From the NCBI GenBank assembly GCA_000092065.1, contig CP000594.1: DNA of 64,000 nt; one strand, given 5' to 3'. Numbering within the stretch: position 1 is the stretch's first letter; each line of letters starts with the position of its first letter. The notes under the pieces were generated by a model. The model was given only the letters and a program-made list of their open reading frames with translations. It searched no databases and was not told where the DNA came from. The translations under genes and the position numbers were made by a program. The stretch is from Ostreococcus lucimarinus (taxonomy: Eukaryota). Positions 1 through 62,472 of the stretch are shown here, in pieces.

Positions 1-2144
1 ATAGCAATTACCGCTGGATCCCCATTCGGTACTTCTCCCGTAAATAGCACCGAAGGCACGTGTGAATTCGTTACCGACGTCGCGACGAGATTCGGCGGGT
101 CGTAATACATGTAATTTGCCATTCCGCCGACCCATATAGAGTTTTCAAAAAACGTCGCGAGCGCGCTGCGATCGTCCGGATAACCCTCAAAACTGATACT
201 GACGGCCGATATGTACGTACCGGTCGCCGCGAACGCACTGTACGACGGCGCATCGCATTCGATCGTTGTCGAATTCACCAGTTTGGCTGGCACATACACG
301 GGCGAACCGTCGTTCAAAAATCGGCACGCCACGCGGTGCGACAGAGTGTCGTCCGGGGCCCAGGAAGAGTCGTATGGAAACCCAACACCACGAATCGTGA
401 GCGTTGTCCCACCCGCCTTGGGTCCTCTTGAAGGGGAAATATCATCGATTTCTGTCACGGAGAAGCTTTGGTACGAGATTTCTGCGTCCGAAACATTGTA
501 CGTCCCTGTGAACAACGCACCCATGCTTGGGATCGTCGTCATCGCACCGATCGGTCTTGTCGACGCCGTCGACCCTTGAACTTCCATGCACGCCGATCCG
601 ACGCAGTTGGCATCCGGGAATACTTTGACTTTTACTATGCGCGTCGGAGCATTCACGTCTGACGCGTCCTGGCTCGTGAGGACGTACAGCGTCCCTCCAC
701 TCGCACCCCCATCGCTCACTGTCTCGATGGCGAGCGCATCCCTAACTAAACTACCACTCGTTCCTAACTTGACGTGTTCTATCGCCGAGCTCGTGTTGTT
801 GAATGATTTTCTAACCCGGTATACGCACGAGATGCGACTGACGCACGTTGCGCCGCACATCGCGCCGTTGTAAGGCGCACTCGATGTCGCGACGTAAGCA
901 TAATCTCCCATCACTCCGAGCGCGGTAAACGCGGTATACCTTCCGAGATAGCTCGACGAAAGCAAAGAATGACCTTCGCACGCCGCGTCGATGGCGGTGG
1001 CGTCTTTAAAGTACAGCTCCCCATCCGCCGCGATTACGCTCTCGCTCGAGTACGGATTCAGGCGAACAATCGCGGGATAATCTTGCGCCGAACTAGCCTT
1101 CGCGCGACCTGCGAGAAACATATCGACGCCACCACCAGTTGTGCCGACCGTGACCGCCTCGGTGAACTTACCTGCGTCTCGTCTGTTGTGGCACGCCTCG
1201 CACGCCGCGCGCAGCGTCGGCAACGATATATCCTTCGCGCTCGGCGCTGCGTCGATACCGCTCGAATACACCAGCACGCGACCAAGCGCGCTCACCGCTG
1301 TGGGTGTTACTTTTAAAATCAAATCATCGTCCGTGCCCATGGCCGCAACGTCGACGATGTATCCATCCGTGGTTTTCTCGTGACGATTTCTAATCGTCCC
1401 GCCGCCCGACGCCAAATCTGACCACACGACGTAACCGTATTCAACTGGCTGCCCCGCCCTTCGCACCCACGCGTTTGCGATGGCGTATATCACATCACTC
1501 GTCGCGCTCGCGACGACGATCGGTCCGCGCATGGCTATCGTCGACCACCCGTCGCTCGTCGCCGCGTCGCCGCGCGGATGCCCGCACGACCCCTTCCATC
1601 CGTTTGGCACAGGATCATCCACGTCGAGCACGATCGTCCCATTCGCCTGCGGCCGCGCGGGCCAACGCGTGGGTTCATTCGCGTTCCACGCCCGCGCGCT
1701 CGCATCGCCCAACCGCGCGTAATGATCCACGCACAGCGCGTCTCGCCCGCCCATCGCGACGACTTCTCGCGTCCCCGCCGCGCGCGCCGTCGCGCACGTC
1801 ACCTCCCGCGGCGCCGCCCCGACCCCCGTCGCCATCACCGGCGCCATCGCCGCGTACCACGTCTCCCGCACCGTCCTTCCATCGACCTCGACGACGCGCT
1901 CGAACGTCTCCACCGCGTCTCTCGCCGCGCCGCAGTCGACGCCGTCCCGGTCCGCGCGGCAGCGACACGTCTCATCGATCTCGCACGTCCCGTACGACCG
2001 CTGCGCCAGGCACTCGCGCGGGCAAAAGCTATACGCGTACCCTTCGCGCGCGCTCGCGCCCAGTGATCCGCACAGCAGCGCCAGCGCGCGCGTCACCGCG
2101 CGCGTTCGTCGCGCCGCGTGTGTCGGTTGCGCGCGCGACGACAT
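1..2144 (-). CDS. Partial CDS, N-terminal ~714 aa. Secreted protein with signal peptide, one EGF-like Cys-rich module and several IPT/TIG domains; continues beyond window start.
   Basis: Manual minus-strand translation has no stops from 2144 down to 1. ATG at 2144..2142 gives MSSRAQPTHAARRTRAVTRALALLCGSLGASAREG (signal-peptide-like), then CPRECLAQRSYGTCEIDETCRCRADRDGVDCG (EGF-like). Repeated IPT/TIG-like segments follow, e.g. ISPSRGPKAGGTTLTIRGVGF and VACRFLNDGSPVYVPAKLVNSTTIECDAPS. Absent from the ORF track because it runs off the window edge. Confidence 0.6.
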   Translation of the reverse strand, partial: MSSRAQPTHAARRTRAVTRALALLCGSLGASAREGYAYSFCPRECLAQRSYGTCEIDETCRCRADRDGVDCGAARDAVETFERVVEVDGRTVRETWYAAMAPVMATGVGAAPREVTCATARAAGTREVVAMGGRDALCVDHYARLGDASARAWNANEPTRWPARPQANGTIVLDVDDPVPNGWKGSCGHPRGDAATSDGWSTIAMRGPIVVASATSDVIYAIANAWVRRAGQPVEYGYVVWSDLASGGGTIRNRHEKTTDGYIVDVAAMGTDDDLILKVTPTAVSALGRVLVYSSGIDAAPSAKDISLPTLRAACEACHNRRDAGKFTEAVTVGTTGGGVDMFLAGRAKASSAQDYPAIVRLNPYSSESVIAADGELYFKDATAIDAACEGHSLLSSSYLGRYTAFTALGVMGDYAYVATSSAPYNGAMCGATCVSRISCVYRVRKSFNNTSSAIEHVKLGTSGSLVRDALAIETVSDGGASGGTLYVLTSQDASDVNAPTRIVKVKVFPDANCVGSACMEVQGSTASTRPIGAMTTIPSMGALFTGTYNVSDAEISYQSFSVTEIDDISPSRGPKAGGTTLTIRGVGFPYDSSWAPDDTLSHRVACRFLNDGSPVYVPAKLVNSTTIECDAPSYSAFAATGTYISAVSISFEGYPDDRSALATFFENSIWVGGMANYMYYDPPNLVATSVTNSHVPSVLFTGEVPNGDPAVIA

Positions 2145-2542
2145 CGGCGTCTTCGTCGCGCGTTCGCGTCGTCTTCAGCGCATCGCACTCGATGTCCGCG
2201 CGTCGGGCGATGCGCGACGGTGCGTTTTATCCGCGCGTCGCGTCGCGTCGCGTCGTCGCGTCGCGCGCGCGTCGCGGTTCGGCGTCGCGCGTCATTCCCC
2301 CGCGGCTCAGTCTCGTTCGGCTCTTGGATACAACACGGAACGTGCGCGCACATCGAATCGTCGCGCTTGACCGGCGCGCGGGAGACGCGCGCGCGGCGAG
2401 AGCGCGACGCCGCGCGCGCGATCGCGGTCGATCGTGATTCGAACCGCGCGCGACGGCGCGCGGGAGCGAACGCGGACGTCGACGCGCGGGCGCGAAGGCG
2501 CGCGCGTCGGGAGACGCGAGACGTCTCTTCGTATCCCTCGCG

Positions 2543-3850
2543 ATGATGCGAATCGTCGTCGTCGTCGTCGTCGTCGCGAGCGCGGCGCGCGTCGAGCGCG
2601 CGCGCGCGTCGACGATCGTGGACGCGTCGAGCGACGTCAGAACGGGCGGTTTCGCGGAGGTGCGCGGTCGGGCGCTTCGCGGGACGAGCGACGCGGAGGC
2701 GTGTCGAGCGCGCGCGTGGGCGACGGGCGCGGACGCGCCGGGCGGCGCGTCGACGGCGGAGGCGACGTGTGCGGCGATCAGTGCGACGTCGGCGACGCGA
2801 TGCGAGGCGGCGATGGCGTCGTTGAAGTGTCGGCTCGCGCGGGCTGGCGCGCGCGCCCGCGCCGAGGCGTGTGACCTCGCGAGCGCGGACGATTGCGAAC
2901 GGTGCGTCCTGCGCGCGCTCGGACGAGGCGCGAGAGGACGCGGAAACATGAACGACAACGATTGGGACGACGCGGTGGAAGACGAGGCCGCTTTTGAGAG
3001 TGACCGCGCGATTACGCTGGACCGCGCGGTGGAGTTTTCAATGTACGTCGACGAAACGCACGCCATCGACAGCGATTGCAAGTTTTTGGTCTCCATGTTC
3101 AGAGCCGAGATGGCATCGCGGGTCGTAGAGTCATTCTCCACGCTGCTCGCAGAGGCGCAGCGCGAGGCCAAGGCGAGGGCGGAAGAAATCACCATCGCGC
3201 TCGCGGAAATTGACGAAGCGGCTCGCAGAAACGCTCGCGACGTCGAGCAAGCGGCGATGGCGCTCGACAAAGTACGCCGCGACCAGCTCGAGTTCGCGAC
3301 GCGGTTTGAAACGTTTGCGGCAAACTTGAACGCCGCGCTGGACCGCGTGGAGCGCGCGTCGCGCGGCGCGCTGCGCGCCGCTCGATTCGCCGCCGAGCTC
3401 GCGAAGCGCTGCGCGGGAATCGTTTCCGAAACCTTCGCGTCGTTGGTTTCGGTTGAGATGATTTTCGTGCGCTTCATCGTCATCGCGTTCGGAACCACGC
3501 GCCCGGCTTTACGGCGTTGCTGCTTTACGGCGTTACTCGTGGAGTGGATGTTACGCGCCGCGCCGCGAACGGCGGCGACGACGCCCTCCAATCGTCTTCG
3601 CCTCGGTCTCCTCTGCGCGTTCGCGCCCAGGATCTGGACGTACGCGAAAGAGCAACTACATCGCTCGCGACGCGACGACGCCGAGACGGGTCGCGTCGAC
3701 GTCGGCGCGAAACCGCGATCCGGTCGTCGCGCGCGAGGCGTCCCCGCGGCGCGAATCGAACCGTCGCCTCGAGTCCCCGAGCCGACGATCGCATCGCCGC
3801 GTCGCGCCAGCGCGCGCCTTCGCGCGACGAAGACGACAAAAATAATTTAA
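2543..3850 (+). CDS. Hypothetical protein; alternative start ATG 2948 (MNDNDWDD...). The central part has ordinary protein composition; both ends are low-complexity.
   Basis: ORF 2543..3850. Region 2948-3480 encodes a non-repetitive sequence (FSMYVDETHAIDSDCKFLVSMFRAEMASRVVESFSTLLAEAQREAK...). The antisense ORF 2227..3591 is Ser/Ala low-complexity. The N-terminus contains a (GTC)8 microsatellite. Confidence 0.3.
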   Translation: MMRIVVVVVVVASAARVERARASTIVDASSDVRTGGFAEVRGRALRGTSDAEACRARAWATGADAPGGASTAEATCAAISATSATRCEAAMASLKCRLARAGARARAEACDLASADDCERCVLRALGRGARGRGNMNDNDWDDAVEDEAAFESDRAITLDRAVEFSMYVDETHAIDSDCKFLVSMFRAEMASRVVESFSTLLAEAQREAKARAEEITIALAEIDEAARRNARDVEQAAMALDKVRRDQLEFATRFETFAANLNAALDRVERASRGALRAARFAAELAKRCAGIVSETFASLVSVEMIFVRFIVIAFGTTRPALRRCCFTALLVEWMLRAAPRTAATTPSNRLRLGLLCAFAPRIWTYAKEQLHRSRRDDAETGRVDVGAKPRSGRRARGVPAARIEPSPRVPEPTIASPRRASARLRATKTTKII

Positions 3851-9728: not shown

Positions 9729-10643
9729 TCAGTTCTTCTTCTGGCCACGCCTCAGCTTCATCAGCACGACCGGCGCGGAGACTTTAACGCGAATATCCAA
9801 CTGATCGAGATCGTGCCCTCCCTCGACTAACCCCCACTCCTCGATCTGCGCCTCCTCCTCGACGCGCGCCGCCGCGATGGCTTCATCCACCGTCAGCCCT
9901 CCTCGAAGCGTCTTCAAACTTATCAACAACGACTTCGTCGCCGCGCTCAGCGCGAACGCGCACGTCAGCTCCCACGGGCACATCGCGTGCAACCGCCGCC
10001 GCAGCACCTCCACCGTCTTCTCGCTCGTTCCCGGTCCAAAGATCGAATCCGACGTCTCCACCGGTCCGAACTCTCGCTCCGCCCACGCCACGATCGGATC
10101 GTGCGCCTTCGCCTGCCTCGCCGCCGTCGCCTCGTCCGGGCTTCGCACCCGCGTCGCGTCCGTGCCAAAGTATTTCAGCAGCGTCTCCACGTGCACCCGT
10201 CGCGTCTCCGCGTCTCCCATGTGATCGATCGCCGTCGCGCTCAGCGACGTCAGCGGCATCGTAAACGGCGCGATGCGTTCGCCCTGCGCGTCCCACTCCG
10301 CCGCGACCGCGCGCGCCAATCCCTCCGTCGCGAACGCGTACTCGTTTCGCTTCGGCGTTCGCAGCGCGCGCGCGTCGAGCTCGACGCGCCACGTCCCGTC
10401 GCGCGCGTCGCGTTCGCGCGCGTCGACGCGCTCGTAAAACCTCGGCGCCGTGCCGTCGGCGCCCATCGTCATCGCGACGCGCTCGGACGACGCCTCGCCG
10501 CGCGTGCGCCCGACGCGCTTCGCCGCCTCGGCGCGCGCGCGCAGCGACGCGCTGCGCGCGTCGCTCGCGTCGACGGGCGCTCGCGACGACGCCGCGCGTC
10601 TCAGCGCCGCTCGGACGCGATCGAGCGCGCGACGCGCGCGCAT
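9729..10643 (-). CDS. ATP12: ATP synthase mitochondrial F1 complex assembly factor 2 (ATP12/ATPAF2).
   Basis: ATG at 10643. RFYERVD....PFTMPLTSLSATAIDHMG...LTCAFALSAATKSLLISL is a typical ATP12 family sequence. Confidence 0.85.
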   Translation of the reverse strand: MRARRALDRVRAALRRAASSRAPVDASDARSASLRARAEAAKRVGRTRGEASSERVAMTMGADGTAPRFYERVDARERDARDGTWRVELDARALRTPKRNEYAFATEGLARAVAAEWDAQGERIAPFTMPLTSLSATAIDHMGDAETRRVHVETLLKYFGTDATRVRSPDEATAARQAKAHDPIVAWAEREFGPVETSDSIFGPGTSEKTVEVLRRRLHAMCPWELTCAFALSAATKSLLISLKTLRGGLTVDEAIAAARVEEEAQIEEWGLVEGGHDLDQLDIRVKVSAPVVLMKLRRGQKKN

Positions 10644-10703
10644 GGCGTCGCGATGTGCCGTCGCGATGCGCGCCGGCGCGCGCGGGCGTCACTCATTCGC
10701 GAC

Positions 10704-12413
10704 ATGTCGAGCGACGACGCGTTCGAGGACGCGTTGGACGACGCGCGCGACGACGCAGACGACGCCTCGAGCGACGACGCGCGATCGGACGCGTTCGAGG
10801 ACGCGCTCGGCGCGCACGCGGCGCGATTTCCGTTGCACCGCGCGGCGTTCGAGAACGACGTCGACGCGGTGCGAGCGCTGCTGGCGCGCGACGACGTCGA
10901 CGCGAACGCGCGCGACGACGCCGGGCACTGCGCGTTGCACGTCGCGGCGCTGAGGCGCGCGGTGGGGGCGACGCGGGCGCTGGCGGCGAGCGCGCGGGTG
11001 GCGACGGAGGCGCGAGACGCGAGGGGCTGGACGGCGACGCGGTTGGCGACGGATCGAAGGGCGCGCGCGTGCGTCAGAGCGCTCGTGGAGGCGAACAGAG
11101 CGAGAGAAAAGAGGTTGGCGCGAGAGATTCGACCGGAGATGGCGCGGGCGGTGGAGGGCGTGGGGGATTTTGAGACGCGCGCGGCGTGGCGGTTCGGTTC
11201 GCGAGTGTTGGCGCCTTTGATTAAGATGGTGGCGCCCAGAGACGCGTACGCGGTGACGTGCGTGGGGAAAAAGCTGAGAATCGACGGCGAGTTGAGAGGG
11301 ATCGATTCCGAGGCGTTGGTGCGGTCGATGATGCCGAAATGGCGACGAGGGAAGTTTAGCTTGATTTACGACGGCGACGCGGGCGAACGCGCGGCGCTTT
11401 GGTTCGTCGATCACGAATCGCGAGAGGTGGTGAACGCGATGGAAAAACCCACGAGACGGGACGGCGATGATGCCGACGCGGCGTCGACGAGCGATGCGCC
11501 GCCGCTCACGGAGGAGGAGATGATTGACGCGATCACGGACGCGTTGCTCGCCGAGGGTGCGGCGAAGAAGAAGGTGCGAACGGAGGGTTTCAAATTCGCA
11601 CCGGTGAAAGGATGGATCGCGGGAAAAGCCAGCGCGTGGATTGGAGGACGCAAGGCGGAAATTTGGGAGGCGACAGCGAAGCTGGCGCGCGAGACTGTGG
11701 CGCCGGGAGGGGGATTTAAACTCGACGGTTCGTTTGAGGAGTACGTGGAGAGCGCGAACGACGCGCGAGAAAACGTCGTCACGCGCGCACCTTTGGGCGA
11801 GTCTTCGAAAGATAAATCCGGGTTAAACATCGATGATAGTAAGGACATGCCACAGCGTCTTCGTAAGATGTCGGCGCGATGTTGGCTCGTGCGCGACTTC
11901 CCTTTAAAGGCGAGTCAGGCGTCGCAGATTTTGGACGTCTTGGAGCGTGCGAATAAAAACGCCGCGCACGTGAACCGCGTGGTGAAGTATTGGTGCTCAA
12001 ACCACGAAAACATGTTTCCGGTGAAGATCCAAGTCCCGCTTATGCTCACGATTTACGCCCAAGTGCAATTTAAAGATTTCAAAGCGCTCGACAAGCGCGC
12101 TCGGGAAGCCAAGTTGCGAGACGGCTTCTTCGAAATTCCGTCGGATTATCGCGTGAAATCTGTGGATGAGATGCTCGCTGAAGTGGAAGAGCGCGCAAAT
12201 CGTGACATGGAACGCATCGAGGCGCTGGATGAGTCGCTGGACGTCGATAACGAGACGGAAGAAATTCGACAGTTGCGCGTCGAACTAGAACGCCTGGCGA
12301 AAAACACGTCGGGCGAAGACGAAGGCGACGATGAATACGAGTTTGACGACGACGACGACGACGAAGACGAAGACGACGAAAACTTAGATGCCGATAGAAT
12401 GAATGTACGCTAG
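10704..12413 (+). CDS. Ankyrin repeat domain 13 (ANKRD13)-like protein: N-terminal ankyrin repeats, GPCR-chaperone domain, acidic C-terminal tail.
   Basis: ATG 10704. FPLHRAAFENDVDAVRALLAR...GHCALHVAAL (ankyrin). CWLVRDFPLKASQASQILDVLERANKNAAHVNRV...FPVKIQVPLMLTIYAQVQF matches the ANKRD13 conserved core (FPLSL...FPVKIEIPLFHV). The upstream part of ORF 9987.. is antisense to ATP12. Confidence 0.8.
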   Translation: MSSDDAFEDALDDARDDADDASSDDARSDAFEDALGAHAARFPLHRAAFENDVDAVRALLARDDVDANARDDAGHCALHVAALRRAVGATRALAASARVATEARDARGWTATRLATDRRARACVRALVEANRAREKRLAREIRPEMARAVEGVGDFETRAAWRFGSRVLAPLIKMVAPRDAYAVTCVGKKLRIDGELRGIDSEALVRSMMPKWRRGKFSLIYDGDAGERAALWFVDHESREVVNAMEKPTRRDGDDADAASTSDAPPLTEEEMIDAITDALLAEGAAKKKVRTEGFKFAPVKGWIAGKASAWIGGRKAEIWEATAKLARETVAPGGGFKLDGSFEEYVESANDARENVVTRAPLGESSKDKSGLNIDDSKDMPQRLRKMSARCWLVRDFPLKASQASQILDVLERANKNAAHVNRVVKYWCSNHENMFPVKIQVPLMLTIYAQVQFKDFKALDKRAREAKLRDGFFEIPSDYRVKSVDEMLAEVEERANRDMERIEALDESLDVDNETEEIRQLRVELERLAKNTSGEDEGDDEYEFDDDDDDEDEDDENLDADRMNVR

Positions 12414-12457
12414 AACTGTATAATTACACCTTACAACACGAGACGCATCACATCACG

Positions 12458-13159
12458 CTACCCGTTCGCGGCTTTGACGAGTTTCGCCTCGCCGTACGAT
12501 CCGTCAAAGTATCTCTCCAACAGAATGGCCGCGCTCGCCGAATCCAGCGCCCCGTTCTCGTTCGACCCCCCACTCGTCGCGATGCGTTCCGACGCTTCCT
12601 TACTCGTCCTAGACTCGTCGTACGTGTACACCACCAAAGCCTTCGTCTCGGCGTTCGTCGAACGCGCGCACGCGTCCGCCACCTCTCCCGCGAATCGAGC
12701 GCACACCGCGTGCATTTGCACCGCCCCTCTCCCGCGTCCGCGACGATCTTTCGCCGCCCTCCCCGGTGGCACCGGAATTCCAACCACGATTCTATCGCAG
12801 CATTCCTCCAGCGCGACGTCTAAGATGGCTCTGACCGTGCTCGTCGTCGTCGCCGTCCCGCTGTGCGTCAGCGTTCGCAGCGGCCGCGGCGCCGCGCCAC
12901 CGTTCGACACCGCCAGACCGACCCTGCGCGCGCCGTAATCCACCCCGAGCGCGATGACATCACCGCGCGCGCGTCTCGCCGCGCGTAACTCATCCTCGAG
13001 CGACGACGACGACGTTTGCGCGTCCGTGAAGGGCGCGCGGCGTTGAGAAAACCACGACGGGGACATCGCGCGCGCGACGCCTCTGTCGACGCCGTGGCGA
13101 CGCGCGCGCGACGAGGACGACGGTACGAGCGCGCGCGAGCCGTTCGCCGCGCGAAACAT
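12458..13159 (-). CDS. YqgF/RuvC-like (RNase H fold) putative pre-16S rRNA nuclease / Holliday-junction resolvase-like protein, probably organelle-targeted.
   Basis: ATG at 13159. LGVDYGARRVGLAVSN is the YqgF signature (G.D.G.+R.G.A.SD). Size and composition are consistent. Confidence 0.75.
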   Translation of the reverse strand: MFRAANGSRALVPSSSSRARRHGVDRGVARAMSPSWFSQRRAPFTDAQTSSSSLEDELRAARRARGDVIALGVDYGARRVGLAVSNGGAAPRPLRTLTHSGTATTTSTVRAILDVALEECCDRIVVGIPVPPGRAAKDRRGRGRGAVQMHAVCARFAGEVADACARSTNAETKALVVYTYDESRTSKEASERIATSGGSNENGALDSASAAILLERYFDGSYGEAKLVKAANG

Positions 13160-13309
13160 GGTTCGCGCGGTGATGCGCGGCGCGCGGGCGAGTGGCGCGT
13201 CGAGCGGCGGCGGCGAGAGGAATCGAGTGGAAGCGTACGCTCGCGACGAACGACCGCGGTGAATGAGGTGTGCTATTGAAATGAATAGAATCTAATGGCG
13301 CGGCGACGC

Positions 13310-15106
13310 TCACGCGCTGGAGGCGAAGAGTTGCGAAAACACGCGCTCTGCCCACGCCGGAATTTCCACGTCGTTTGCCTGCGTAAAGTTCACGAGCGGT
13401 TCCTGGACGTGATAACGAATCTTTCGACCCTTGCTCGCCTTGCGATCGACGTTTTTGCGACGTTTGATTTGTTTGGAGACGACGGAAGGTCCACCGGCGA
13501 CGCCGGCGTCGTTGCCGCTCTCGAGGAACTCTTTGAGGAGTTGCTCGTAAAAGTCGACGTCGTCGTAAAGCTCCGACTCGCGAGCCTCACCTTCGTCCAA
13601 GCCATCGACGTTGACGGTTTCGGCTTTGTTCTCGTCGTCATCGTCGGCTTCTTCGCTCCGCACGGCGGCGCGTCGCTCACCGACGCGAATCGGCGCGCTG
13701 CGCTTCGGCGGCTGCGACTTTTCAATCAAACGCGCGGGCGCGCGCATGGTGGACGATACTTGCTGAGAGATGGACTGGTTGAACGCCTTCAGACCGCCGC
13801 CCGCGCCTCCGCCGACCGCTTTACCCACGGAGACGGCGGATTTTCTGTACCATCGATCGCACGTCGAGTCGCGGTAGTTTGCGAACGCTCTGTATCCGGC
13901 GTCGTGCTTCGTCCACGCGTCGTCCAAGTCGTCGTCCACACCAATCACCGTAGCGTCCGCGCCGAGATTTGAGGTCGAGGCTATGTCGGCTATGTTCGCC
14001 ATCAACGCAGTTTGAAGCGCAGAGAGCGTTCGCATGGTCTTCCGTGCGACTTTGGATAACGTCTCGAACGATTCGCGCGTCTCGGGCGACGCGCGTTTCA
14101 GTCCTCGGCACGCCAACGCCGTCGGTAACTTGGCGGCTCCGGTCATGACTTTCTGCAAACGAATTCTCGCGTGTAGCGCACGCTCCCAAACCGTTCGTTG
14201 CGCGCGAACCGCCTTACCTTTCGAGACGTGCTGCGCCTTGGTGTCGACGAGCTTCTTCGTTTGTTCCTCCTCCTCGCGAAACGCTTGAAGCTCTCGAGCG
14301 AGATCTGCGTCGCCTTCCGTGGCGGCGCCCAACAAATCTCTCGCCCGCGCGCCCTGCGCGTCGAACTCATCGCTCTGATCCTCGTCGTCCTCGTCCTCGT
14401 CGTCCTCGTCGCCGCCGTTCCTTCGTCCGGATCCCGTCGCCGCGGCGTCTTCGTCGTACCCTTCGTACGCGTCGTCGTCCTCATCCGCGTACGGATCCTC
14501 ATCGCTCGCGTCCCCATCCTCCTCCGCACTTTCCTCGTCGTCGTCCCCGTCGTCCCCGTCGTCGTCGTCGCTCTCGTCCTCATCCGTCTCGCGCGCCGCC
14601 TCCGGTTCGTCCCGCGCGAAGTCCCGCCTCGACGCGCTTCGTCCCGCGTACTCCTCCCCCTCCATCTCGATCGGTCCTCGCATCCGCAACCGTCCGTCGT
14701 TCCCCCCCCCCGCGCGCACCGCGCGCTTTCCTCGCTCCCTCCCTCGCCTCGCCGCGCGTCCGCTCTCGCGATCGTCGCTCGAATCGTCGCCGAACCCGTC
14801 GCCCGCGTCGCGTCCCGCGTCGTCGTCCCACCCATCCTCGCTCCCGCTCTCGTCCTCGTCCAGCGCGCCCTCGATCGCGCGCAGCGCCTCGAACGCGCGT
14901 TTGCGCGCCTCTACCCCGCCCTCTGGCTCGAGCGCGCGCGCGCGCGCGTCGTCGTCGTCGTCGTCGCGCGTCGTCGCGCCGCCGCCGGCGTCCCCACCGC
15001 GCGTCGTCGCGCCGCGCGCGATCGCGTCCAGCCGCGCCATCGCGTCCGCGCGCGAGGGCGTGGACGAGGGCGACGCTTTCGCGCGTCTCCGCGGCGTCGC
15101 GCCCAT
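13310..15106 (-). CDS. AATF: AATF/Che-1/Bfr2 family nucleolar protein (AATF domain plus TRAUB domain), very acidic N-terminal half.
   Basis: ATG at 15106 (MGATPRR). The ORF-track start 15190 is a GTG. WERALHARIRLQK..., the C-terminal YDDVDFYEQLLKEFLE and PAWAERVFSQLF match AATF-Che1 and TRAUB domains. Confidence 0.8.
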   Translation of the reverse strand: MGATPRRRAKASPSSTPSRADAMARLDAIARGATTRGGDAGGGATTRDDDDDDARARALEPEGGVEARKRAFEALRAIEGALDEDESGSEDGWDDDAGRDAGDGFGDDSSDDRESGRAARRGRERGKRAVRAGGGNDGRLRMRGPIEMEGEEYAGRSASRRDFARDEPEAARETDEDESDDDDGDDGDDDEESAEEDGDASDEDPYADEDDDAYEGYDEDAAATGSGRRNGGDEDDEDEDDEDQSDEFDAQGARARDLLGAATEGDADLARELQAFREEEEQTKKLVDTKAQHVSKGKAVRAQRTVWERALHARIRLQKVMTGAAKLPTALACRGLKRASPETRESFETLSKVARKTMRTLSALQTALMANIADIASTSNLGADATVIGVDDDLDDAWTKHDAGYRAFANYRDSTCDRWYRKSAVSVGKAVGGGAGGGLKAFNQSISQQVSSTMRAPARLIEKSQPPKRSAPIRVGERRAAVRSEEADDDDENKAETVNVDGLDEGEARESELYDDVDFYEQLLKEFLESGNDAGVAGGPSVVSKQIKRRKNVDRKASKGRKIRYHVQEPLVNFTQANDVEIPAWAERVFSQLFASSA

Positions 15107-15171
15107 GCCGGGCGTCGCGACGGCGCGTGACGCGCGATGGGGACGACGCCGACGGCGGACGCGCGTCGTGT

Positions 15172-15342
15172 ATAAAAACCCGTCTCGCACTGCGCACCAT
15201 ACGTGATATCAACAAAACCCGTCTCGCACTGCGCACCATACGACGCGAGCAGTGATATGAAAACCCGTCTCGCACTGCGCACCATACGACGCGCGCAGTG
15301 ATATCAACAAAACCCATCTCGCACTGCGCACCATACGACGCT
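15172..15342. repeat. Four tandem copies of a ~47-bp unit with core AAAACCCGTCTCGCACTGCGCACCATACG, preceded by TGTATAAAAAC, in the divergent AATF/psaD promoter.
   Basis: Copies start near 15175, 15215, 15258 and 15311. They read tgatatcaacaaaaccc(g/a)tctcgcactgcgcaccatacgacgcg(a/c)gcag, with few substitutions. Confidence 0.85.
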
Positions 15343-15462
15343 ACCGCGGCGTATCTCGCGCGCCGCGCGTATCGCGAGCGATCGCGCGCGGCCGACGCGG
15401 GCGCGGCACACGCGCGCGCCCGACGCCCGCGCCCCCGAACTTCGCGGACGCGACACACGACG

Positions 15463-16527
15463 ATGTTTGCCATCTCCAGCTCCGCGCTGACGCCGCGCGC
15501 GACGGTCGCGAACGCGACGCGCACGCGACGATCGACGACCGCGCGACGATCGACGGCGATCCGCGCCGAGGCGGAGGGCGCGAAGGCGGCGCCGGCGGCG
15601 CCGAAGGCGTGGACGGCGCCGAAGTTGAACCCGAACACGCCGTCGCCGATTTTCGGTGGTTCCACCGGCGGTCTGTTGAGAAAGGCGCAGGTGCGCGAGC
15701 GACGAGGGAGCGGCGAACGCGCGCGACGATCGAGGCGCGGGCGGGATACGCGACGAACCTAGGGGTGATGATTGGGGCGATTGGGGCGCCGGCGAACGGA
15801 GGGGGGGGGGCGAACGATGCGCGAACGATGCGTCGAGTTTCTTTGCGGCGCGGGCGCGCGGGCGATCGGGGGGGGGTCGAACGCGCGCGACGACGCGCGC
15901 GCAATCGCGCGATCGGGCGCGGTGGGATGGGAACGTTTGGCGCGAGGCGCGCGGGGGGGATTTCAAAGACGACGACGACGCGAGACTGACGGATGCGATG
16001 ATGCGTTTGACGCGTGTAGGTTGAGGAGTTCTACGTGCTGACGTGGGAAGCGAAGAAGGAAGCCATCTTCGAGATGCCGGTGCGTGGACGAGGCGAGCGC
16101 GAAGGCGCGCGCGCGCGAAGATATCGCGCGCTTTGAAACGACGCGACGACGAAGAGGCAAAGATTGGGGATGCGCGACGCGATCGTGGACGCGAAACAGC
16201 GACTGACGTGATGAAACGTGTATTTTGCATCCGCAGACCGGTGGTGCCGCGATCATGCGCAAGGGCCCGAACCTGTTGAAGCTCGCGCGCAAGGAGCAAT
16301 GCCTCGCGCTTTTGAACAACTTCCGCGCGAAGATGAAGCTCGACGGCTGCATCTACCGCGTGTTCCCGTCCGGTGAGGTGCAATACTTGCACCCGAAGGA
16401 TGGTGTGTACCCGGAGAAGGTGAACAAGGGTCGCGTCGGTGCCAACCAGAACATGCGATCGATCGGCAAGAACACCAACCCGGCGTCGATCAAGTTCCAA
16501 GGCAAGCTCGGCCCGTTCGAAGTTTAG
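15463..16527 (+). CDS. psaD: Photosystem I reaction centre subunit II (PsaD) precursor. Three exons: 15463..15690, 16014..16073, 16237..16527.
   Basis: Spliced product is MFAISSS...(transit peptide)...[15 protein letters not shown]|[20 protein letters not shown]|[25 protein letters not shown]...[18 protein letters not shown]...[10 protein letters not shown], near-identical to plant/algal PsaD. Introns are 15691..16013 (GTGCGC...GACTGAC...TAG) and 16074..16236 (GTGCGT...GACTGAC...CAG). Confidence 0.9.
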
Positions 16528-16977
16528 ACAGACGGCTCGCGCTCGCCGCGCACCGAGGGTTCGGTCGTCGTCGTCGAGTCGCCGCTCGAGTCAGATGTCC
16601 GTCGATGTGTTTCACTCTTCGCGATGCGAAGTCAACGCGAGATGGCGCTCGTTTGAATTATTAGAATTCTTCGACGTCCCTCGCGCTTTGCGTCGCGTCG
16701 AGCGCGCTTCGACGTTCGCGGCGTCTGATTTCTTCGCGCGGCGTCGCTCGACGCTTCGATCTCACCCTCTGCGCGCGATCGTGATGTAAATCACGCCTCC
16801 TAGCCAAACTAATTGCAGTAACACACAGATTTTCACTGTTCATCCGCGCGCGCGCGTTCGCCCGCCCGCGCGCGATCGCCGGTCGCCGGTCGAGATCTTC
16901 GCCGCGATGACGCTGGCTGCGCGCCGTGGAATGACGCACATCGTATTTTAGAGCCATTATATATGCAAGATACGTTT

Positions 16978-16988
16978 TTAGGGTTTAC
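16978..16988. promoter_or_regulatory. Telo-box-like interstitial telomeric motif TTTAGGGTTTA, followed by TATAAT, ~210 bp upstream of the CHL27 ATG.
   Basis: The sequence is acgtttttagggtttacctataatttcgcg at 16973-17002. It matches 1.5 units of the terminal TTTAGGG repeat. Confidence 0.3.
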
Positions 16989-17199
16989 CTATAATTTCGC
17001 GCGATCGGATCTTATCTGAGAAAATCTATACTGTTTGCGCATACGACGCGGACGCCCTCGGGACGACCCGCATCGGATAAGCGCCGACGATCGTCACAGC
17101 ACGCCTCGCGTTCGCCGCTCCGTCCGCTCGCGACGCCGTGACGAAAGCAGACGCACGTAACACTTTGCGCACGCACCACCGCACGCCTCGACGAGCGAC

Positions 17200-18426
17200 A
17201 TGCACGCGTTCACCATGCGCGCGAGCGCGATGAAGACGCCGGTGGCGAAGATGACGTCGAGATCGCGATCGGCGACGCGACGCCAAGGCGCCGTGGTCGT
17301 CCGCGCGGCCGCGGCGACGGACGCGGAGACTGGGATCAAGAAGATGCGCGAGGGTATCAAGGAGGCGGCGAACGAAAACTTGTTGACGCCGCGATTTTAC
17401 ACGACGGATTTCGACGAGATGGAGCGCCTGTTCAGCACGGAGATCAACCCGAACTTGGACGAGACGGAGATTAACGCCATCTTGAACGAGTTCCGCGAGG
17501 ATTTCAACCAGAAGCACTTCGTGCGCAACGATGAGTTCAAGGCGGCGGCGGATCAGATCAAGGGTGAGCCGCGCAGAATTTTCATCGAGTTTTTGGAGCG
17601 CTCGTGCACGGCGGAGTTTAGCGGGTTTTTGTTGTACAAGGAACTCGGCCGCAGATTGAAGAAGACGGCCCCGGCGGTGGCGGAGATCTTCACGTTGATG
17701 TCCCGCGACGAGGCGCGTCACGCTGGGTTCTTGAACAAGGCGATGAGCGATTTCAACTTGGCGCTCGACCTCGGGTTTTTGACCAAGAACCGCCAATACA
17801 CGTTTTTCCAGCCGAAGTTCATCATGTACGCCACGTACTTGAGCGAAAAGATTGGCTACTGGCGTTACATCTCCATCTACCGCCACTTGCAAGCGAATCC
17901 GGACGAGCAATTGTACCCGTTGTTCAAGTACTTTGAGAACTGGTGCCAAGACGAAAACCGTCACGGCGACTTCTTCTCGGCGATTTTGAAGGCGCGCCCG
18001 GAGTTGATCAACACCACCGAAGCGAAGCTCTGGTCTCGATTCTTCTGCTTGTCCGTGTACGTCACCATGTACTTGAACGATCACGGCCGCAGTGAGTTCT
18101 ACGAATCGCTCGGTTTGGACACGACGCAATTCAACATGCACGTCATTCACCAAACCAACAAGACGACGGCGACGATTTTCCCGCAAGTCATCGACACCTA
18201 CAACCCGGAGTTCAAGGCGCGTCTCGACAAGCTCGTCGGCGTGAACACCCAACTCCAAGCCATCGGTAAGGGTGAAGGTTCGGAAATCATGAAGAACTTG
18301 CAAAAGGCGCCGCTCATCGCCACCTTCGCGGGTGAGTTGATCGGTTTGTTGGCCATGGCTCCGGTCGACGCCGGTTCCATCGACTTGACCGGCGTTCCGG
18401 AATCCGACCCGTCCTTCATGTACTAA
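17200..18426 (+). CDS. CHL27: Mg-protoporphyrin IX monomethyl ester (oxidative) cyclase (CHL27/CRD1/AcsF), plastid precursor.
   Basis: ATG 17200. [14 protein letters not shown]...[17 protein letters not shown]...[16 protein letters not shown]...ENRHGDFF shows the di-iron carboxylate motifs of AcsF. Full-length single exon. Confidence 0.95.
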
Positions 18427-18828
18427 GCGACAGTCACAGACGGCGACGAGGAGGACACACCAGCAACCATTTTAGCGCAACACACATCCACAAAAACGTG
18501 ATTTTATCGTCACATCTTTTCAAGATTCTTAAAGTCTTCGGCGCCGTTCGCGCCGCCGGCGAACGATATCGCGAAACGAGCCAACACGCTTGGTATTTCC
18601 ACTTTATTGTATTGGCGCGTAGTCTCGCTTTATAATATTACACAAGATTCGAAATGTTTATCCTCCTCGCGCACTCGATCGCGTCGCGCGTTCGATTCCG
18701 CGCGTTCGACGTCCGCGCGTTCGACGTCTGCGCGCCGCGCCTCCCCGTCTCGTCCTCATTCCACCGCGCGTCCGCGCATCCGCGCGTCTGCGCGCCGCCC
18801 GCGTCCGCGCGCGCTCAACGAACGTACC

Positions 18829-20733
18829 ATGCGTCGTTTCATGCGCGACGCCTCGCGCTTAGAGCGCGACGCCAAGGCTGAGCACGATTTTTATCATTCA
18901 TTAATCAGTCAGTTGCAGACGGAATTGGAAGACGCGAAACACTCGAGCGAATTACTGCGCGCCGAGCTCGATCGCGCGCGCGAGGGACGGTCGCGAGACG
19001 TCGCATCTTCGTCCGCGACGACGCCGAGCGGCGACGCGACGAACGCGAGGGAGACGACGACGGTGGGGGTGGAAAGGGAGACGCGAGGGGAGGACGAGGC
19101 GACGCGAGACGCGAAAGCGGAGGAGACGGAGCGGGAATTGATCGCGTTGCGCGCGAAAGTCGCAGCGTTGAGCGCGCAAAGCGAAAAAAGTGAGAGTGAT
19201 GCGAATGATGACGCGGAACGCGCGCGGATGGTGGAGGAGTTGGATGAGATGCGAGAACACATGCGAACGGCGACGGCGAGCGCGCATCGAGCGAACGCCG
19301 AGGTGAACGCGGTGGCGCATCAAAATCGGACGTTGATGGAAAAAGAACGACGACGCGCGAACGCGGCAGAGGCGAGAATAAAAGAACTCATGGATCTCAT
19401 GGAACAGCAGGTAAATGGTGAGGACGCGGCGATGCGTAAGCGCGCGGAGGCGTTAGAGGAAGCGTTGACAACGTCGACGAGCGAAGTCGAGACGCTTCGC
19501 TCGGAGAACGAGGAACTAGAGGTGCGGTTGCGAGCCGTGATCGAGCGCTTGGATGCGATTGAGTCATCCGTGGATGTGAGTGAGTCATCCGCGCTCGCGG
19601 TGGTGGTGGAGGAGAAGGAACGCGCGATGATGGGTCGGGCGTACGCCGACGAAGCGGCGACTTCGCTTCGACGCTCGGCGCTCGAGGCGCGAGCGGCGGC
19701 GAACGCGTTTCGCGCTCGCCTGTACCCCGACGGTGATCCTGAAAGTGACGATGCGCGAATGTTGGTGATCGTACACGCCGTGCTCGAGGGACATCCGTTT
19801 GACGACGCGAGTCGCGACGTCACAAACGCCGTTCGAGCACGTCTGCGATCGCACGGGGAAGAACGACTGGTGATTCTCGTGAGCGAAAATCTGTGCGATT
19901 TGATTCCAGACGACGCCGTGAACGCGCCGATGAGCTTAGGCGCCAAAATCTCTCTGCGAGACGTCGAAAATACGACGAACCGACGACCCGCGACGTTGCG
20001 CATAACGTATGCGTTCGACGTGCGCGATTCGCAAACAGGCGATGTCGTCAAGGGCGACGAGCGAATGATCACCATTCCCGTCGGCGCCGCCGGGACTCCG
20101 CACGCGTTCGCCATGCAAAGCGTATGGCTCGAAGCCGCGTGCACCGGCATAGAAGACGCTCTCAAAGCGTCTTATTCGCGATTGAGAGACGCCGAAAGCA
20201 CGGCGAGCGCTGCCAAAGTACGCGCCATCGCGTTGCAAGGCGAAGCCGCGCGAATGCGTCACCATGGAGGCAGTTCGGCTCGAGCACAAGCTCTCGAGCG
20301 ACGAGAACTCGAGATTGAAAGGCGCGAGGCCCAACTCAACGCCGAGGTCGTGGAAATCGAAGGCATGGTTGCGCGCGCGCGGGAAGAAGCCGAAGCCATG
20401 CGCCGCGAGGCGAACCGCATCGTCGCCGACGCCTCGGCGAGTCTCCGCGTCAAGGATGACGAAATCGAACGCCTGCGCGCGCTACAATCGTCCGTCACTC
20501 GCGCGCAAAACCGGTCGAAATCTTGGCGTCGAGAGACCGCCGCCGCGCGTTTAACCGCCGCCGCCGACGACGACGCTTCCAACGCTCGAAGACTCGCCGC
20601 CGCCGGCAACCATCGCGCCGCGGCGTCCTCTTTAGAAAACGCCGAGCGTCGTCTCGCGAGAATCACCGCCGCGTGCGTCGCCAAATCTACCGCTCGAGCG
20701 TTGGCGCCCGTAGACAACGTAAACTTGATGTAA
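18829..20733 (+). CDS. Large coiled-coil protein (Glu/Arg/Ala-rich heptad regions), function unknown.
   Basis: ATG 18829 (MRRFMRDASRLERDAKAEHDFYHSLISQLQTELEDAK...). Long predicted coiled-coil stretches. Antisense ORFs on the minus strand are low-complexity. Confidence 0.5.
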   Translation: MRRFMRDASRLERDAKAEHDFYHSLISQLQTELEDAKHSSELLRAELDRAREGRSRDVASSSATTPSGDATNARETTTVGVERETRGEDEATRDAKAEETERELIALRAKVAALSAQSEKSESDANDDAERARMVEELDEMREHMRTATASAHRANAEVNAVAHQNRTLMEKERRRANAAEARIKELMDLMEQQVNGEDAAMRKRAEALEEALTTSTSEVETLRSENEELEVRLRAVIERLDAIESSVDVSESSALAVVVEEKERAMMGRAYADEAATSLRRSALEARAAANAFRARLYPDGDPESDDARMLVIVHAVLEGHPFDDASRDVTNAVRARLRSHGEERLVILVSENLCDLIPDDAVNAPMSLGAKISLRDVENTTNRRPATLRITYAFDVRDSQTGDVVKGDERMITIPVGAAGTPHAFAMQSVWLEAACTGIEDALKASYSRLRDAESTASAAKVRAIALQGEAARMRHHGGSSARAQALERRELEIERREAQLNAEVVEIEGMVARAREEAEAMRREANRIVADASASLRVKDDEIERLRALQSSVTRAQNRSKSWRRETAAARLTAAADDDASNARRLAAAGNHRAAASSLENAERRLARITAACVAKSTARALAPVDNVNLM

Positions 20734-25377: not shown

Positions 25378-27909
25378 TTACGAAAATTCGCCGCGAGCTC
25401 TGAGCGCGGCGTACACTCGCGCTCGCGCCGCGCGGAGGGGTTCCATCTCCGCCGCAAATCGAGCGCTGTACGCGCGCTTATCTTCGCTAGATGTCGAATC
25501 ATCGCGCATGTACTCCGCGCGCGCACTCTGAAGCTCGCTTATCTTTGTCTCGATCGCGTCGTATGCTTCAGACGACGCCGTCTCACCGTCGCGCAAGGAC
25601 AAGTCTACGTACGTCGCCGAGCGTCGGCTCGGATCGTACACTTGTCCAGGAGCCTCGCCCAGGGTCAACGCTTTATAAATCGGTTTGTCTCCCGCGGAGG
25701 CACCGAGATATGTGCCGTGAACGCCAGTCCAACTCGGTGCGACCTCGCTCGTGTTTTCCTTTTCGTCCCACCAAGTCTTGACGTCTCGCGACGTGTAGAC
25801 GCCGCCGAGCGAACGGTTCGCCGTTTGATCAACGTCGACTTCATTATGTTCGGTCTGCTCCACTTCGTCGTCCTCGTCATCATCGCTGTCATCATGTGTA
25901 CTCCGTGCAACGCGCCAGACGCTCACTCGACCGCCTTCGTCACCGATGACGACCATCCACGGTGACGCGGCGGTCAGGCGCTCGCCCGATCGAAGCGAGA
26001 TCGGCGTTGGACTCCACGCCACGTGCGTCACCGCGCCGTCGCCGCTCGCGCGCCAACTGGATGTTGCTTCTAATGTATCGCTATCGTGTACGCGCAAAAA
26101 ACCATCCCGTGTGACGACAGCGACGAGGCCACCCATCGGAGAATGCGCCACTTTGACCACGGCGCCCGAGCGCACGACGTCTACGCCTCGCATCGTCGCG
26201 ATGACGCCTGAATGATCGCTGTTTTCCAAGAGAGGTTTCCCAGCCCCGCTCGGGGACGCTCGAATGGACCACACACGCAACACACCGTCATCGCAACCCG
26301 TCACGGCGACGTTACGCGAACCAGGATGAGGATGCCAGGAGAAGGACGAGATTCGGCTCGAGTGTGCGTCGTACCACTTACACAAGCGTCCGCTCACGGA
26401 GCTCCACACGAGAAGTCTGTTCAGAGATCTCGACGCGCCTTTCAACGCGGACATTGCCGTCGACGTGACGACGAGACGACCGCAGGAGAGGTAGTTCACG
26501 TCGATGATGGCGCCTGATTTCCAGCGAAGCGTGTGCAGGCACTCGCCCGCCGTCTCCGTCGCTTCTGCGACGAGATCCCACACTCGTCCATCGCCATCGA
26601 GAGAGCCGCTGGTGAGCTGCGCGCGACCACGCGTTGGATGAAACGCTAAACACGTTATCTCGCGTTTATGCGCGTTCAGTCCGGCAGGGATGACCAGCTC
26701 TAGCGTGGCGTGCGCGACGTCCCAGACGCAAATCGAGCCGTCACTCGCGCCCGCGGCAACGAACTCACCGGTACGATCAAAGTCGATCGCGGTCACGTTG
26801 ACAGACTGAGAGAATCCAACAAGTGCGTTTGTCGACGCCACTGACGCGCTTGGGGCGCCTCGTTCGGTTAAATTAAATGTCCAAATACTCACGAAACCGT
26901 TCACGCCGGCGACGACGAGCTCGCCGTCGCCTTCTGGCGACCATTTCAACTCACTCACCGCGTGAGGTAACTTTGTCGAGTACAAGCACTCACCTTGAGG
27001 AACGCTAAATAACTTCAAGTTGTTATCCTCACCGATTGTGGCGACGTACGCGTTCGTCGTTTCCGCGCCGCCGCGCTCAATATTCGTCGAAGAAGGCTTC
27101 ATCGCCAGACCGATAACGGGACCTCGATGCGCTTGCATGGACGCTACTCTGTCTTCGCGAAGCATCTTCGCCTCCACCCGCGCCAAACCCCCTATCAAAA
27201 CGCTTGAGAACTCTTCGTCGTCATCGCTTGAGGTCGCTCGATCGACGCATTCGCGATAAAGCTCGGCGGCGCGGGACCACGCGCCGAGCGCCTCGAGCGC
27301 GCGTCCCTTCAAAATCCAAGGAGGAAACCACAGAGCGCGAACGCCGATGGCGCGATCGGCATCATCACACGCTTCTCGCCAGCGATCGAGTTTGGCGTAC
27401 GCCATCCCTCGAGCGTGGTACAACTCGGCGTATTCCGCCGTTCCGTCCACTTTCGCGTACGCCGCCGCCGCCGTGTAACATTCAATCGCCTTCTCATACT
27501 CCCCAGCCTCGTACCGCGCGTCACCGATCGCCTTCAAATCTCCACCCATCGTGATCGAAGCGCCGTCTTCGCCTTGGCGTATCTCCAACGCGACCTCGAC
27601 CTCGACCTCGTCTCTTCGGCGCGCGTCTCGCTCGCGCGTCTCGTCTCCCCTCGTCCCCGACCCGAATGCCGCGGTCCCCATCGTCGCCAACGCCGCGCGT
27701 TCGCGCTCAAACTTTGTCGTTATCGTTTCGTACGCGCGCTGTATCGCGCGGAACGCCTCGACGTCGCCCCCGGGCTTATCCGGGTGGTGCGCTCGTGCGA
27801 GCGTTTTATACGCAGCCTTCACATCGCGTTCGGACGCGCCTACGTCGAGACGGAGCGCGCTGAACGCGCTCGCGAGCGCTCGGCGCGCGCGTCGACGATT
27901 GTCCGACAT
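25378..27909 (-). CDS. DnaJ (J-domain)-TPR-WD40 multi-domain protein.
   Basis: ATG at 27909; the track start 27912 is a GTG. N-terminal J-domain (DVKAAYKTLARAHHPDKPGGDVEAFRAIQRAYETI), then TPR-like segment (AIGDARYEAGEYEKAIECYTAAAAYAKV...) and multiple WD40 blades (GSLDGDGRVWDL, DGSICVWDV, DGVLRVWSI...). Confidence 0.7.
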   Translation of the reverse strand: MSDNRRRARRALASAFSALRLDVGASERDVKAAYKTLARAHHPDKPGGDVEAFRAIQRAYETITTKFERERAALATMGTAAFGSGTRGDETRERDARRRDEVEVEVALEIRQGEDGASITMGGDLKAIGDARYEAGEYEKAIECYTAAAAYAKVDGTAEYAELYHARGMAYAKLDRWREACDDADRAIGVRALWFPPWILKGRALEALGAWSRAAELYRECVDRATSSDDDEEFSSVLIGGLARVEAKMLREDRVASMQAHRGPVIGLAMKPSSTNIERGGAETTNAYVATIGEDNNLKLFSVPQGECLYSTKLPHAVSELKWSPEGDGELVVAGVNGFVSIWTFNLTERGAPSASVASTNALVGFSQSVNVTAIDFDRTGEFVAAGASDGSICVWDVAHATLELVIPAGLNAHKREITCLAFHPTRGRAQLTSGSLDGDGRVWDLVAEATETAGECLHTLRWKSGAIIDVNYLSCGRLVVTSTAMSALKGASRSLNRLLVWSSVSGRLCKWYDAHSSRISSFSWHPHPGSRNVAVTGCDDGVLRVWSIRASPSGAGKPLLENSDHSGVIATMRGVDVVRSGAVVKVAHSPMGGLVAVVTRDGFLRVHDSDTLEATSSWRASGDGAVTHVAWSPTPISLRSGERLTAASPWMVVIGDEGGRVSVWRVARSTHDDSDDDEDDEVEQTEHNEVDVDQTANRSLGGVYTSRDVKTWWDEKENTSEVAPSWTGVHGTYLGASAGDKPIYKALTLGEAPGQVYDPSRRSATYVDLSLRDGETASSEAYDAIETKISELQSARAEYMRDDSTSSEDKRAYSARFAAEMEPLRAARARVYAALRARGEFS

Positions 27910-28187
27910 CACGCGCGCGACCGGTCGCCTTCGCGCGCGCCGAGGGCGTCGTGGTGTGCTCGGCGTGCTCGATGAAAAAAAGCGTTTCTGCCAGACGGAC
28001 GTTTTTTGAGCTCGAGACTCGGGGAGTGAATAAAAATGGAATTAGGGTCGATTTGTGTTATTAAAAGCGAGTCGAGTCGGTCGTCGAGAGTTTCCGTGGA
28101 GTTTCGTTCCATCGTCTTCCGTGATCGCGGTTTTCGCGAGATGAAGAAGTGCGTGGACGAGTGACGAGCGAGCTGGCGTTCGCGCGA

Positions 28188-60489: not shown

Positions 60490-60561
60490 ATTTATTGAGT
60501 TTCACGGTATCATTTATTGAGTTTCACGGTATCATATTTATTGAGTTTCACAGTATCATTC
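60490..60561. repeat. Three tandem copies of a ~24-bp AT-rich unit (TTTATTGAGTTTCACGGTATCAT) in the convergent 3' region between the Nudix-like gene and the P2X gene.
   Basis: The sequence is ggctgtatttattgagtttcacggtatcatttattgagtttcacggtatcatatttattgagtttcacagtatcattcgtt. Confidence 0.8.
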
Positions 60562-62356: not shown

Positions 62357-62472
62357 ACTCGCTGACGGCGAACGCGAAGTGACGCGTCCAAGTTGGATGT
62401 TTGCTTGATTCCCCTCGAACGCCGGATATCGCCGCAAAGGTCGTCGCGTCGGTCGGTCGGCGGCGGCGCGAC

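Follow-up and report, generated by a model that had tools for sequence, protein, structure and literature searches.

In plexin, MET, and semaphorin ectodomains, an N-terminal seven-bladed beta-propeller of ~470 aa stands directly before IPT/TIG domains in a membrane-anchored receptor, and integrin alpha similarly carries a seven-bladed propeller head on an Ig-like stalk and follows an adhesion-receptor logic. Here, we analyzed a stretch of 64,000 nt from Ostreococcus lucimarinus (assembly GCA_000092065.1, contig CP000594.1; hereafter, the window), in which the minus strand of positions 1–2144 holds the start of a gene that is cut by the window edge. A preliminary description had read this gene as an unannotated, secreted protein with an EGF-like module and several IPT/TIG repeats; the observation itself was real, and its interpretation was partly right. 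We propose, with a probability of about 0.65, that positions 1–2144 (−) encode the N-terminal head of a giant, multi-pass, surface receptor-like membrane protein of a marine green picoalga. Its domain order is a signal-like N-terminus, an EGF-like module, a propeller, two TIG domains, stalk repeats, a Cys-rich region, a membrane domain, and a tail, which is an unusual combination of familiar extracellular modules with two domains that have no sequence family. The main feature inside the window is a predicted seven-bladed beta-propeller of ~470 aa, for which no sequence family is known.

The minus-strand frame from 2144 to 1 contains 714 codons and no stop. It opens at an ATG at 2142–2144, and a stop in the same frame lies 11 codons upstream, at 2175–2177. 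These 714 codons (1..2144, −) are the start of a 3,461-codon gene, since the same ATG opens an open reading frame (ORF) of that length on same-species contigs, so that the preliminary description was correct both about a stop-free frame of >700 codons and about its truncation. The frame is indeed missing from the program-made ORF list, in which the longest entry across 1–2144 is 320 aa, but only because ORFs running off the source are left unlisted; its "unannotated" status is thus an artefact of listing, not biology. The guanine-plus-cytosine (GC) content of the frame was 0.70 at third codon positions, compared with 0.58 at the first and 0.56 at the second. When the frame was compared with a 95% identical contig of a sister strain (L001), 53 of the 88 differences fell at third codon positions, and the ratio of nonsynonymous to synonymous substitution rates (dN/dS) was 0.22 (0.21 in the propeller, 0.25 in the TIG part), indicating that, relative to the sister strain, purifying selection acts on the frame.

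We considered whether the frame might be open by chance or belong to a pseudogene, because long spurious ORFs occur in GC-rich genomes, because two overlapping listed ORFs, at 1475–2437 (+, 320 aa) and 1578–2066 (+, 162 aa), look spurious, and because frameshifts are present in L001. The translation of 1475–2437 (+) is a low-complexity sequence rich in Arg, Ser, and Pro that overlaps the minus-strand gene, as expected from off-frame readings of DNA with ~61% GC, the ordinary value around the gene. However, the minus-strand frame contains a Pfam TIG match, the dN/dS of 0.22 and the excess of third-position differences are not those of a chance frame, and independent assemblies preserve the frame, the 3,461-codon ORF being intact on three contigs. 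The probability of this explanation is therefore negligible.

The frameshifts were traced to the sister-strain contig itself. L001 (ENA ERZ10646592 contig_17996; 339 kb) has clustered 1-nt indels at 9828–12600, which break the gene into 801 + 50 + 2568 aa. Further assemblies from the strain group of L001 (P0181, P0183, P0184) read through the break sites in the frame of the window, those of P0181 and P0183 directly contradicting the frameshifts, and the sibling assemblies P0181, P0183, P0184, and P0185 break at other sites. Furthermore, the sequence at the interruption (GGTRGFKITA..., GDYxxxFxGxDCT) is conserved in distant homologues. The frameshifts are therefore attributed to assembly noise, and the pattern looks like that of an error-prone long-read assembly rather than of pseudogenisation. 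Introns or a pseudogene, also considered as the cause of the break, were ruled out by the in-frame read-through elsewhere and by the intact ORF in the species of the window.

The protein beyond the window edge was obtained from a metagenome scan, in which four same-species contigs (L007–L010) showed 99–100% aa identity to the window protein. On three of them, L007, L008 (at 10001–20383), and L009, this ATG begins one uninterrupted ORF of 3,461 codons, with 99.4% aa identity. Pfam analysis of the full-length protein detected the first TIG domain and a sub-threshold Ephrin_rec_like match at aa 2433–2464, and nothing more. Self-BLAST of the full protein detected no repeats; profile self-comparison alone revealed a stalk of ~11–12 divergent tandem repeats of ~135 aa at aa ~830–2385 (~1,550 aa), with E values of 1e-8 to 1e-14 and offsets of ~115–145, 263, and 398. 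These repeats may adopt an Ig-like fold. The stalk is followed by a Cys-rich stretch, with 19 Cys between aa 2369 and 2610, and then by a cluster of strongly hydrophobic 19-mers at aa ~2617–3022 (hydropathy peaks 1.8–2.3), from which at least six strong hydrophobic helices are predicted. The layout of this membrane domain is three hydrophobic segments, a ~110-aa loop, and about six more segments, and it precedes a charged, helix-prone C-terminal tail of ~440 residues rich in E, R, K, and A. Searches of Pfam, NCBIfam, and PDB sequences gave no match for the membrane domain. The product is thus predicted to be a giant multi-pass membrane protein, of which the window holds the N-terminal fifth.

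This result bears on the proposal that the gene encodes a secreted, soluble adhesion protein composed of an EGF-like module and three or more IPT/TIG repeats. As that proposal predicts, the protein has a signal-like N-terminus, an EGF-like Cys module, and one TIG domain. In contrast, the hydrophobic domain at aa 2617–3022 is multi-pass, the propeller fills most of the in-window part, and the whole protein holds two TIG domains, TIG profiles finding none in the stalk. A secreted multi-TIG protein is accordingly very unlikely, and the word "secreted" in the preliminary description has to be dropped; its extracellular placement is retained, in that ~2,600 N-terminal residues would lie outside the cell.

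The membrane domain also raised the question of a receptor-channel of the polycystin-1/PKD-REJ type, in which an Ig-like repeat ectodomain is joined to a channel-like membrane domain and a coiled-coil tail, and ion flux would be gated by ligand or by mechanical load acting on the stalk. The topology is analogous (repeat ectodomain, three hydrophobic segments, ~110-aa loop, ~six segments, and charged helix-prone tail), and the membrane domain is 40–60% identical to that of P0010, a homologue described below. However, the membrane domains of two orthologs gave no PKD, REJ, GPS, PLAT, PKD_channel, or Ion_trans match in Pfam even at E ≤ 10 and no PDB sequence match. We regard a receptor-channel as rather unlikely.

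The N-terminal part of the head, aa 1–32 (2049..2144, −), contains the start codon and a signal-peptide-like segment, as judged from hydropathy and sequence: a basic n-region is followed by the hydrophobic ALALLCGSLGASA and then by A-S-A ahead of R33. This segment is kept in frame in P0181, P0183, P0184, and P0188, and the homologues P0004, P0018, and P0010 similarly have a hydrophobic N-terminus immediately ahead of the EGF cysteines, which agrees with the signal peptide noticed in the preliminary description. The EGF-like module, aa 41–71 (1932..2024, −), is defined by a six-Cys pattern with Cys at 41/45/54/60/62/71 and the spacing C-x3-C-x8-C-x5-C-x-C-x8-C. Within it, aa 60–71, CRCRADRDGVDC, fits C-x-C-x5-G-x2-C, which we take to be the PROSITE EGF_1 pattern. 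The sister strain retains all six Cys, the homologues P0004 and P0018 have a canonical CxCxxG[WF]xGxxC at this position, and one family member matches Pfam EGF_Teneurin (E = 1.2e-4). Pfam EGF models gave no match to the window protein, even at E ≤ 10. The earlier assignment of an EGF-like Cys module is thus upheld by the Cys pattern and by homologues, but not by a Pfam match in the window protein.

Residues ~95–562 (459..1862, −) are not a string of TIG repeats; they form the beta-propeller that the first reading missed. In an AlphaFold2 (AF2) model, this region is predicted to contain seven four-stranded blades that can be superposed on solved propellers. The top ranks in a Foldseek search of the model were occupied by proteins that combine a propeller with Ig/IPT domains: plexin A and C, MET, and the dynein gamma heavy-chain N-terminus. 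The integrin alpha5beta1 headpiece was also among the matches, at rank 23. At the sequence level, neither WD40 nor other named propeller-type hidden Markov models (HMMs) of Pfam or NCBIfam matched the scanned family members, and PDB sequence searches gave no match for the propeller. An RGD tripeptide (HPRGDAAT) was observed at aa 191–193 (window 1566–1574, −) in a propeller loop. It arises from a lineage-specific deletion of four residues, the equivalent homologue segment being HPRAxGxxD/N, and it is probably incidental.

The structural matches suggest that the protein could be a genuine green-algal member of the semaphorin/plexin/MET superfamily (Sema propeller, PSI, and IPT). The top PDB matches were the ectodomains of plexin A1/A2/A4/C1 and MET, with E values of 1e-8 to 1e-6; weak phmmer matches to plexin-A4 and MET (E = 0.03–0.1) were found at the propeller/IPT junction; and the order of propeller then IPT, with a propeller of ~470 aa that is large for seven blades, is Sema-like. 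Nevertheless, the Sema HMM PF01403 matched neither the window protein (E ≤ 10) nor seven family members (E ≤ 0.1). Between the propeller and the first IPT domain, no Pfam PSI match was obtained, and only two cysteines, Cys 514 and 519, are present, with strands of the last blades after them. The protein thus resembles a propeller-on-IPT-stalk receptor in its proposed working but falls outside the Sema/plexin family by these profiles, and we consider true membership highly improbable.

The propeller is followed by the first IPT/TIG domain, TIG1, at aa 563–655 (180..458, −). Pfam analysis of the translation, which the preliminary description had suggested as a check, matched PF01833 at aa 566–636 with 38.8 bits (gathering score 20.9) and E = 9.3e-10. 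TIG1 was also found in the full-length same-species protein and in all seven family members scanned with Pfam, and the AF2 model shows it as a seven-strand sandwich. The window edge cuts a second, TIG-like domain, TIG2, of which the first ~32 residues (aa 683–714; 3..98, −) are inside. Pfam did not detect TIG2, even in the full-length protein; it was recognized by a profile-profile match, in which the family profiles of TIG1 and TIG2 aligned by hhalign with 95% probability and E = 4e-8. Its continuation, ...AVIAIDGGPFVDGVLKCRFG...TCPLCP, is present in the same species (P0180; L007–L010). No further copy was found when the TIG1 and TIG2 profiles were run against aa 560–2620 of the full-length protein, and the motif C.F...A...T.+.C..P, on which the repeats had been recognized, occurs once, at aa 607–633. 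Instead of at least three IPT/TIG repeats, there are two in the whole 3,461-aa protein, and one and a fraction in the window.

When 1.84 billion representatives were scanned exhaustively with HMMER for relatives of the protein, 145 matches were obtained. Approximately eight clusters share the propeller (P0003/P0004, P0008, P0012, P0017, P0018, P0046, and P0096) and the rest match in TIG only; a search seeded with P0004 added P0189–P0197. All relatives come from ENA, JGI, or Logan assemblies, without a name beyond "hypothetical protein", and they were found only in green-picoalgal environmental assemblies. Their loci are green-algal, with starch synthase III with CBM53, PsbQ, and CbiX as neighbours and a GC content of 53% to 62%. 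A scan of viral contigs found no relative of the window protein, and no description of it was found in the literature on Ostreococcus, Micromonas, and Bathycoccus. Among the matches, P0002, P0005, and P0021, all on one 6,954-nt Logan contig, correspond to window aa 359–490, 610–713, and 171–227. They were first candidates for paralogs of 64–69% identity and were rejected as such: their differences are nearly all A→V, T→I/M, P→L/S, H→Y, and R→C, i.e., C→T in DNA, as in converted assemblies of the same gene. They look like the product of assembling bisulfite-converted reads from this organism or one very close to it. Because of such an assembly, protein databases seem to contain more homologues than there are.

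Family members (P0004, P0017, P0018, P0192, P0010, and others) are 25–52% identical and share one layout: EGF, propeller (absent in P0010), TIG1, TIG2, stalk, Cys-rich region, and membrane domain. This architecture is conserved in full, membrane domain included, at the same level in other green-algal loci as well as in synteny; L002 and L004 share it overall, and L002 includes the membrane domain. The P0192, P0018, and P0004 loci (L002, L004, and L006) have a different conserved neighbourhood (CbiX, zf-DNL, and starch synthase III with CBM53), and this group and the window gene may be orthologs after rearrangement between genera, or paralogs. In contrast, P0010 (2,956 aa; locus L003) is the syntenic ortholog in a related species. 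The gene order ATP12, Cnd3, x, Hydrolase, MOSC, x, [this gene], MOZART1, PGM is common to L003, the window, and L001. Across the stalk, membrane domain, and tail, P0010 shows ~52% identity. Its signal peptide and EGF module (window aa 3–71) are retained, as is TIG1 (aa 569–704), with only 40 nt between them, and the propeller segment of ~497 codons is missing, no trace of it being found elsewhere in the 28.9-kb L003 locus. Because more distant members have the propeller, its loss in the P0010 lineage would be the simplest reading, and so clean a loss speaks for a head that is a modular element of specificity and can be dispensed with.

Several of these observations would be accounted for if the protein served recognition in a biotic arms race, for example as an attachment target of prasinoviruses or as a gamete- or mate-recognition adhesin, with the propeller as its variable specificity module. 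P0010/L003 lacks precisely the propeller and retains all else, including the signal peptide, EGF, and TIG; the head, which is 25–29% identical to P0004-type members, diverges faster than the stalk and membrane parts, which are ~52% identical in P0010; and surface proteins of a naked cell, as in Ostreococcus-type cells, are directly exposed. However, selection on the head between close strains is purifying rather than diversifying, the dN/dS of 0.21 arguing against rapid diversification; the gene lies in DNA of ordinary GC content; and the viral-contig scan gave no viral homologue. An arms-race determinant is thus distinctly unlikely.

As judged from the sequences, the protein is conserved, under purifying selection, and anchored in the membrane, and it is most likely a giant cell-surface receptor or adhesin. 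In the mechanism that we propose, the protein would be inserted co-translationally, with its ~2,600 N-terminal residues outside the cell, and the long repeat stalk would keep the EGF-propeller head well away from the naked cell surface. The head could bind an extracellular partner (another cell, a particle, or a glycan), and engagement might be relayed to the multi-pass membrane domain and the cytoplasmic tail for transduction or anchoring. Several points weigh against this receptor-like reading. The quality of the AF2 model is modest (mean pLDDT, the model's own confidence score, 59; below 50 for aa 1–200), and the first blade and aa 72–200 were modelled with low confidence. The signal peptide and the membrane topology were assigned from hydropathy only, and the h-region is only moderately hydrophobic, with a hydropathy peak of 1.7. 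Furthermore, the existence of a syntenic ortholog without the propeller implies that the head is not essential to the role of the rest of the protein.

Ostreococcus-type cells are among the smallest free-living eukaryotes and have very compact genomes and no cell wall. The >10 kb that such a cell devotes to a single surface protein imply that the extracellular interaction is an important one. Pfam detects almost nothing of the family beyond one TIG domain, which, together with the clean presence or absence of the propeller between syntenic orthologs, recommends it as a tractable candidate for mediating virus attachment, recognition between cells, or the sensing of particles in marine picophytoplankton. 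A far-reaching extension, which we offer as speculative and rather improbable, is that the gene is the first example of a so far undescribed family of giant receptors on the surface of Mamiellophyceae-type green picoalgae, with two non-Pfam domains (a Sema-sized propeller and a multi-pass module) and with the head as a swappable cassette that sets the interaction with prasinoviruses, bacteria, or mating partners.

Upstream of the gene, a GC-rich intergenic region of ~400 bp (2145..2542), presumed to be a bidirectional promoter with 5′ untranslated region, separates it from a divergent gene; relative to L001, this region has many small indels, as expected of non-coding DNA. The divergent neighbour (2543–3850, +; a listed ORF) encodes 435 aa and had no Pfam match, and orthologs of it occupy this position in L001 and L003 as well. 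It evolves fast, being 34% identical to its syntenic counterpart in L003, compared with 62% for a nearby HAD-type hydrolase. Elsewhere, the window carries a TOC159-type chloroplast import GTPase (41140–43650, −; TOC159_MAD, E = 4e-90), a BTA1-like protein with DUF3419 and a methyltransferase domain that is a probable betaine-lipid synthase (45983–48706, −), and an 844-aa ORF (25378–27912, −) in which an N-terminal DnaJ, TPR, and a WD40 propeller form an uncommon co-chaperone-like architecture. A 731-aa P2X-receptor-like ORF (60556–62751, −) has a short match to Pfam P2X_receptor (E = 8e-8) that covers profile positions 2–53 only; it could be a homologue of ATP-gated channels, and such a gene would be unusual in the green lineage. 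The TOC159, BTA1-like, and P2X-like genes agree with the picoalgal origin proposed in the preliminary description.

Giant ectodomains of TIG/Ig repeats, a membrane anchor, and a helix-prone cytoplasmic tail are also found in fibrocystin/PKHD1 and polycystin-1, the latter of which shares a multi-pass C-terminal domain with the picoalgal protein. In contrast to both, the picoalgal protein has two TIG domains only, and Pfam analysis of the full-length protein and the membrane domain gave no G8, PbH1, PKD, REJ, GPS, PLAT, or PKD_channel match; the likeness is one of gross layout only. The setting also differs from the ciliary one of fibrocystin and polycystin-1, as the picoalgal lineage is presumed to be non-flagellate. 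Among protists, Dictyostelium TgrB1/TgrC1 are IPT/TIG-based surface proteins that act in cell-cell recognition (allorecognition); Tgr proteins are single-pass, much smaller, and without a propeller. Integrin alpha is unlike the picoalgal protein, which has no FG-GAP/integrin Pfam match, a far longer stalk, a multi-pass membrane domain, and no known partner subunit. Nevertheless, plexin/MET and integrin alpha are propeller-on-Ig-stalk receptors, and the mechanism proposed here would share their logic. The propeller-then-IPT receptor layout thus appears to exist outside animals and their relatives, by convergence or by deep homology.

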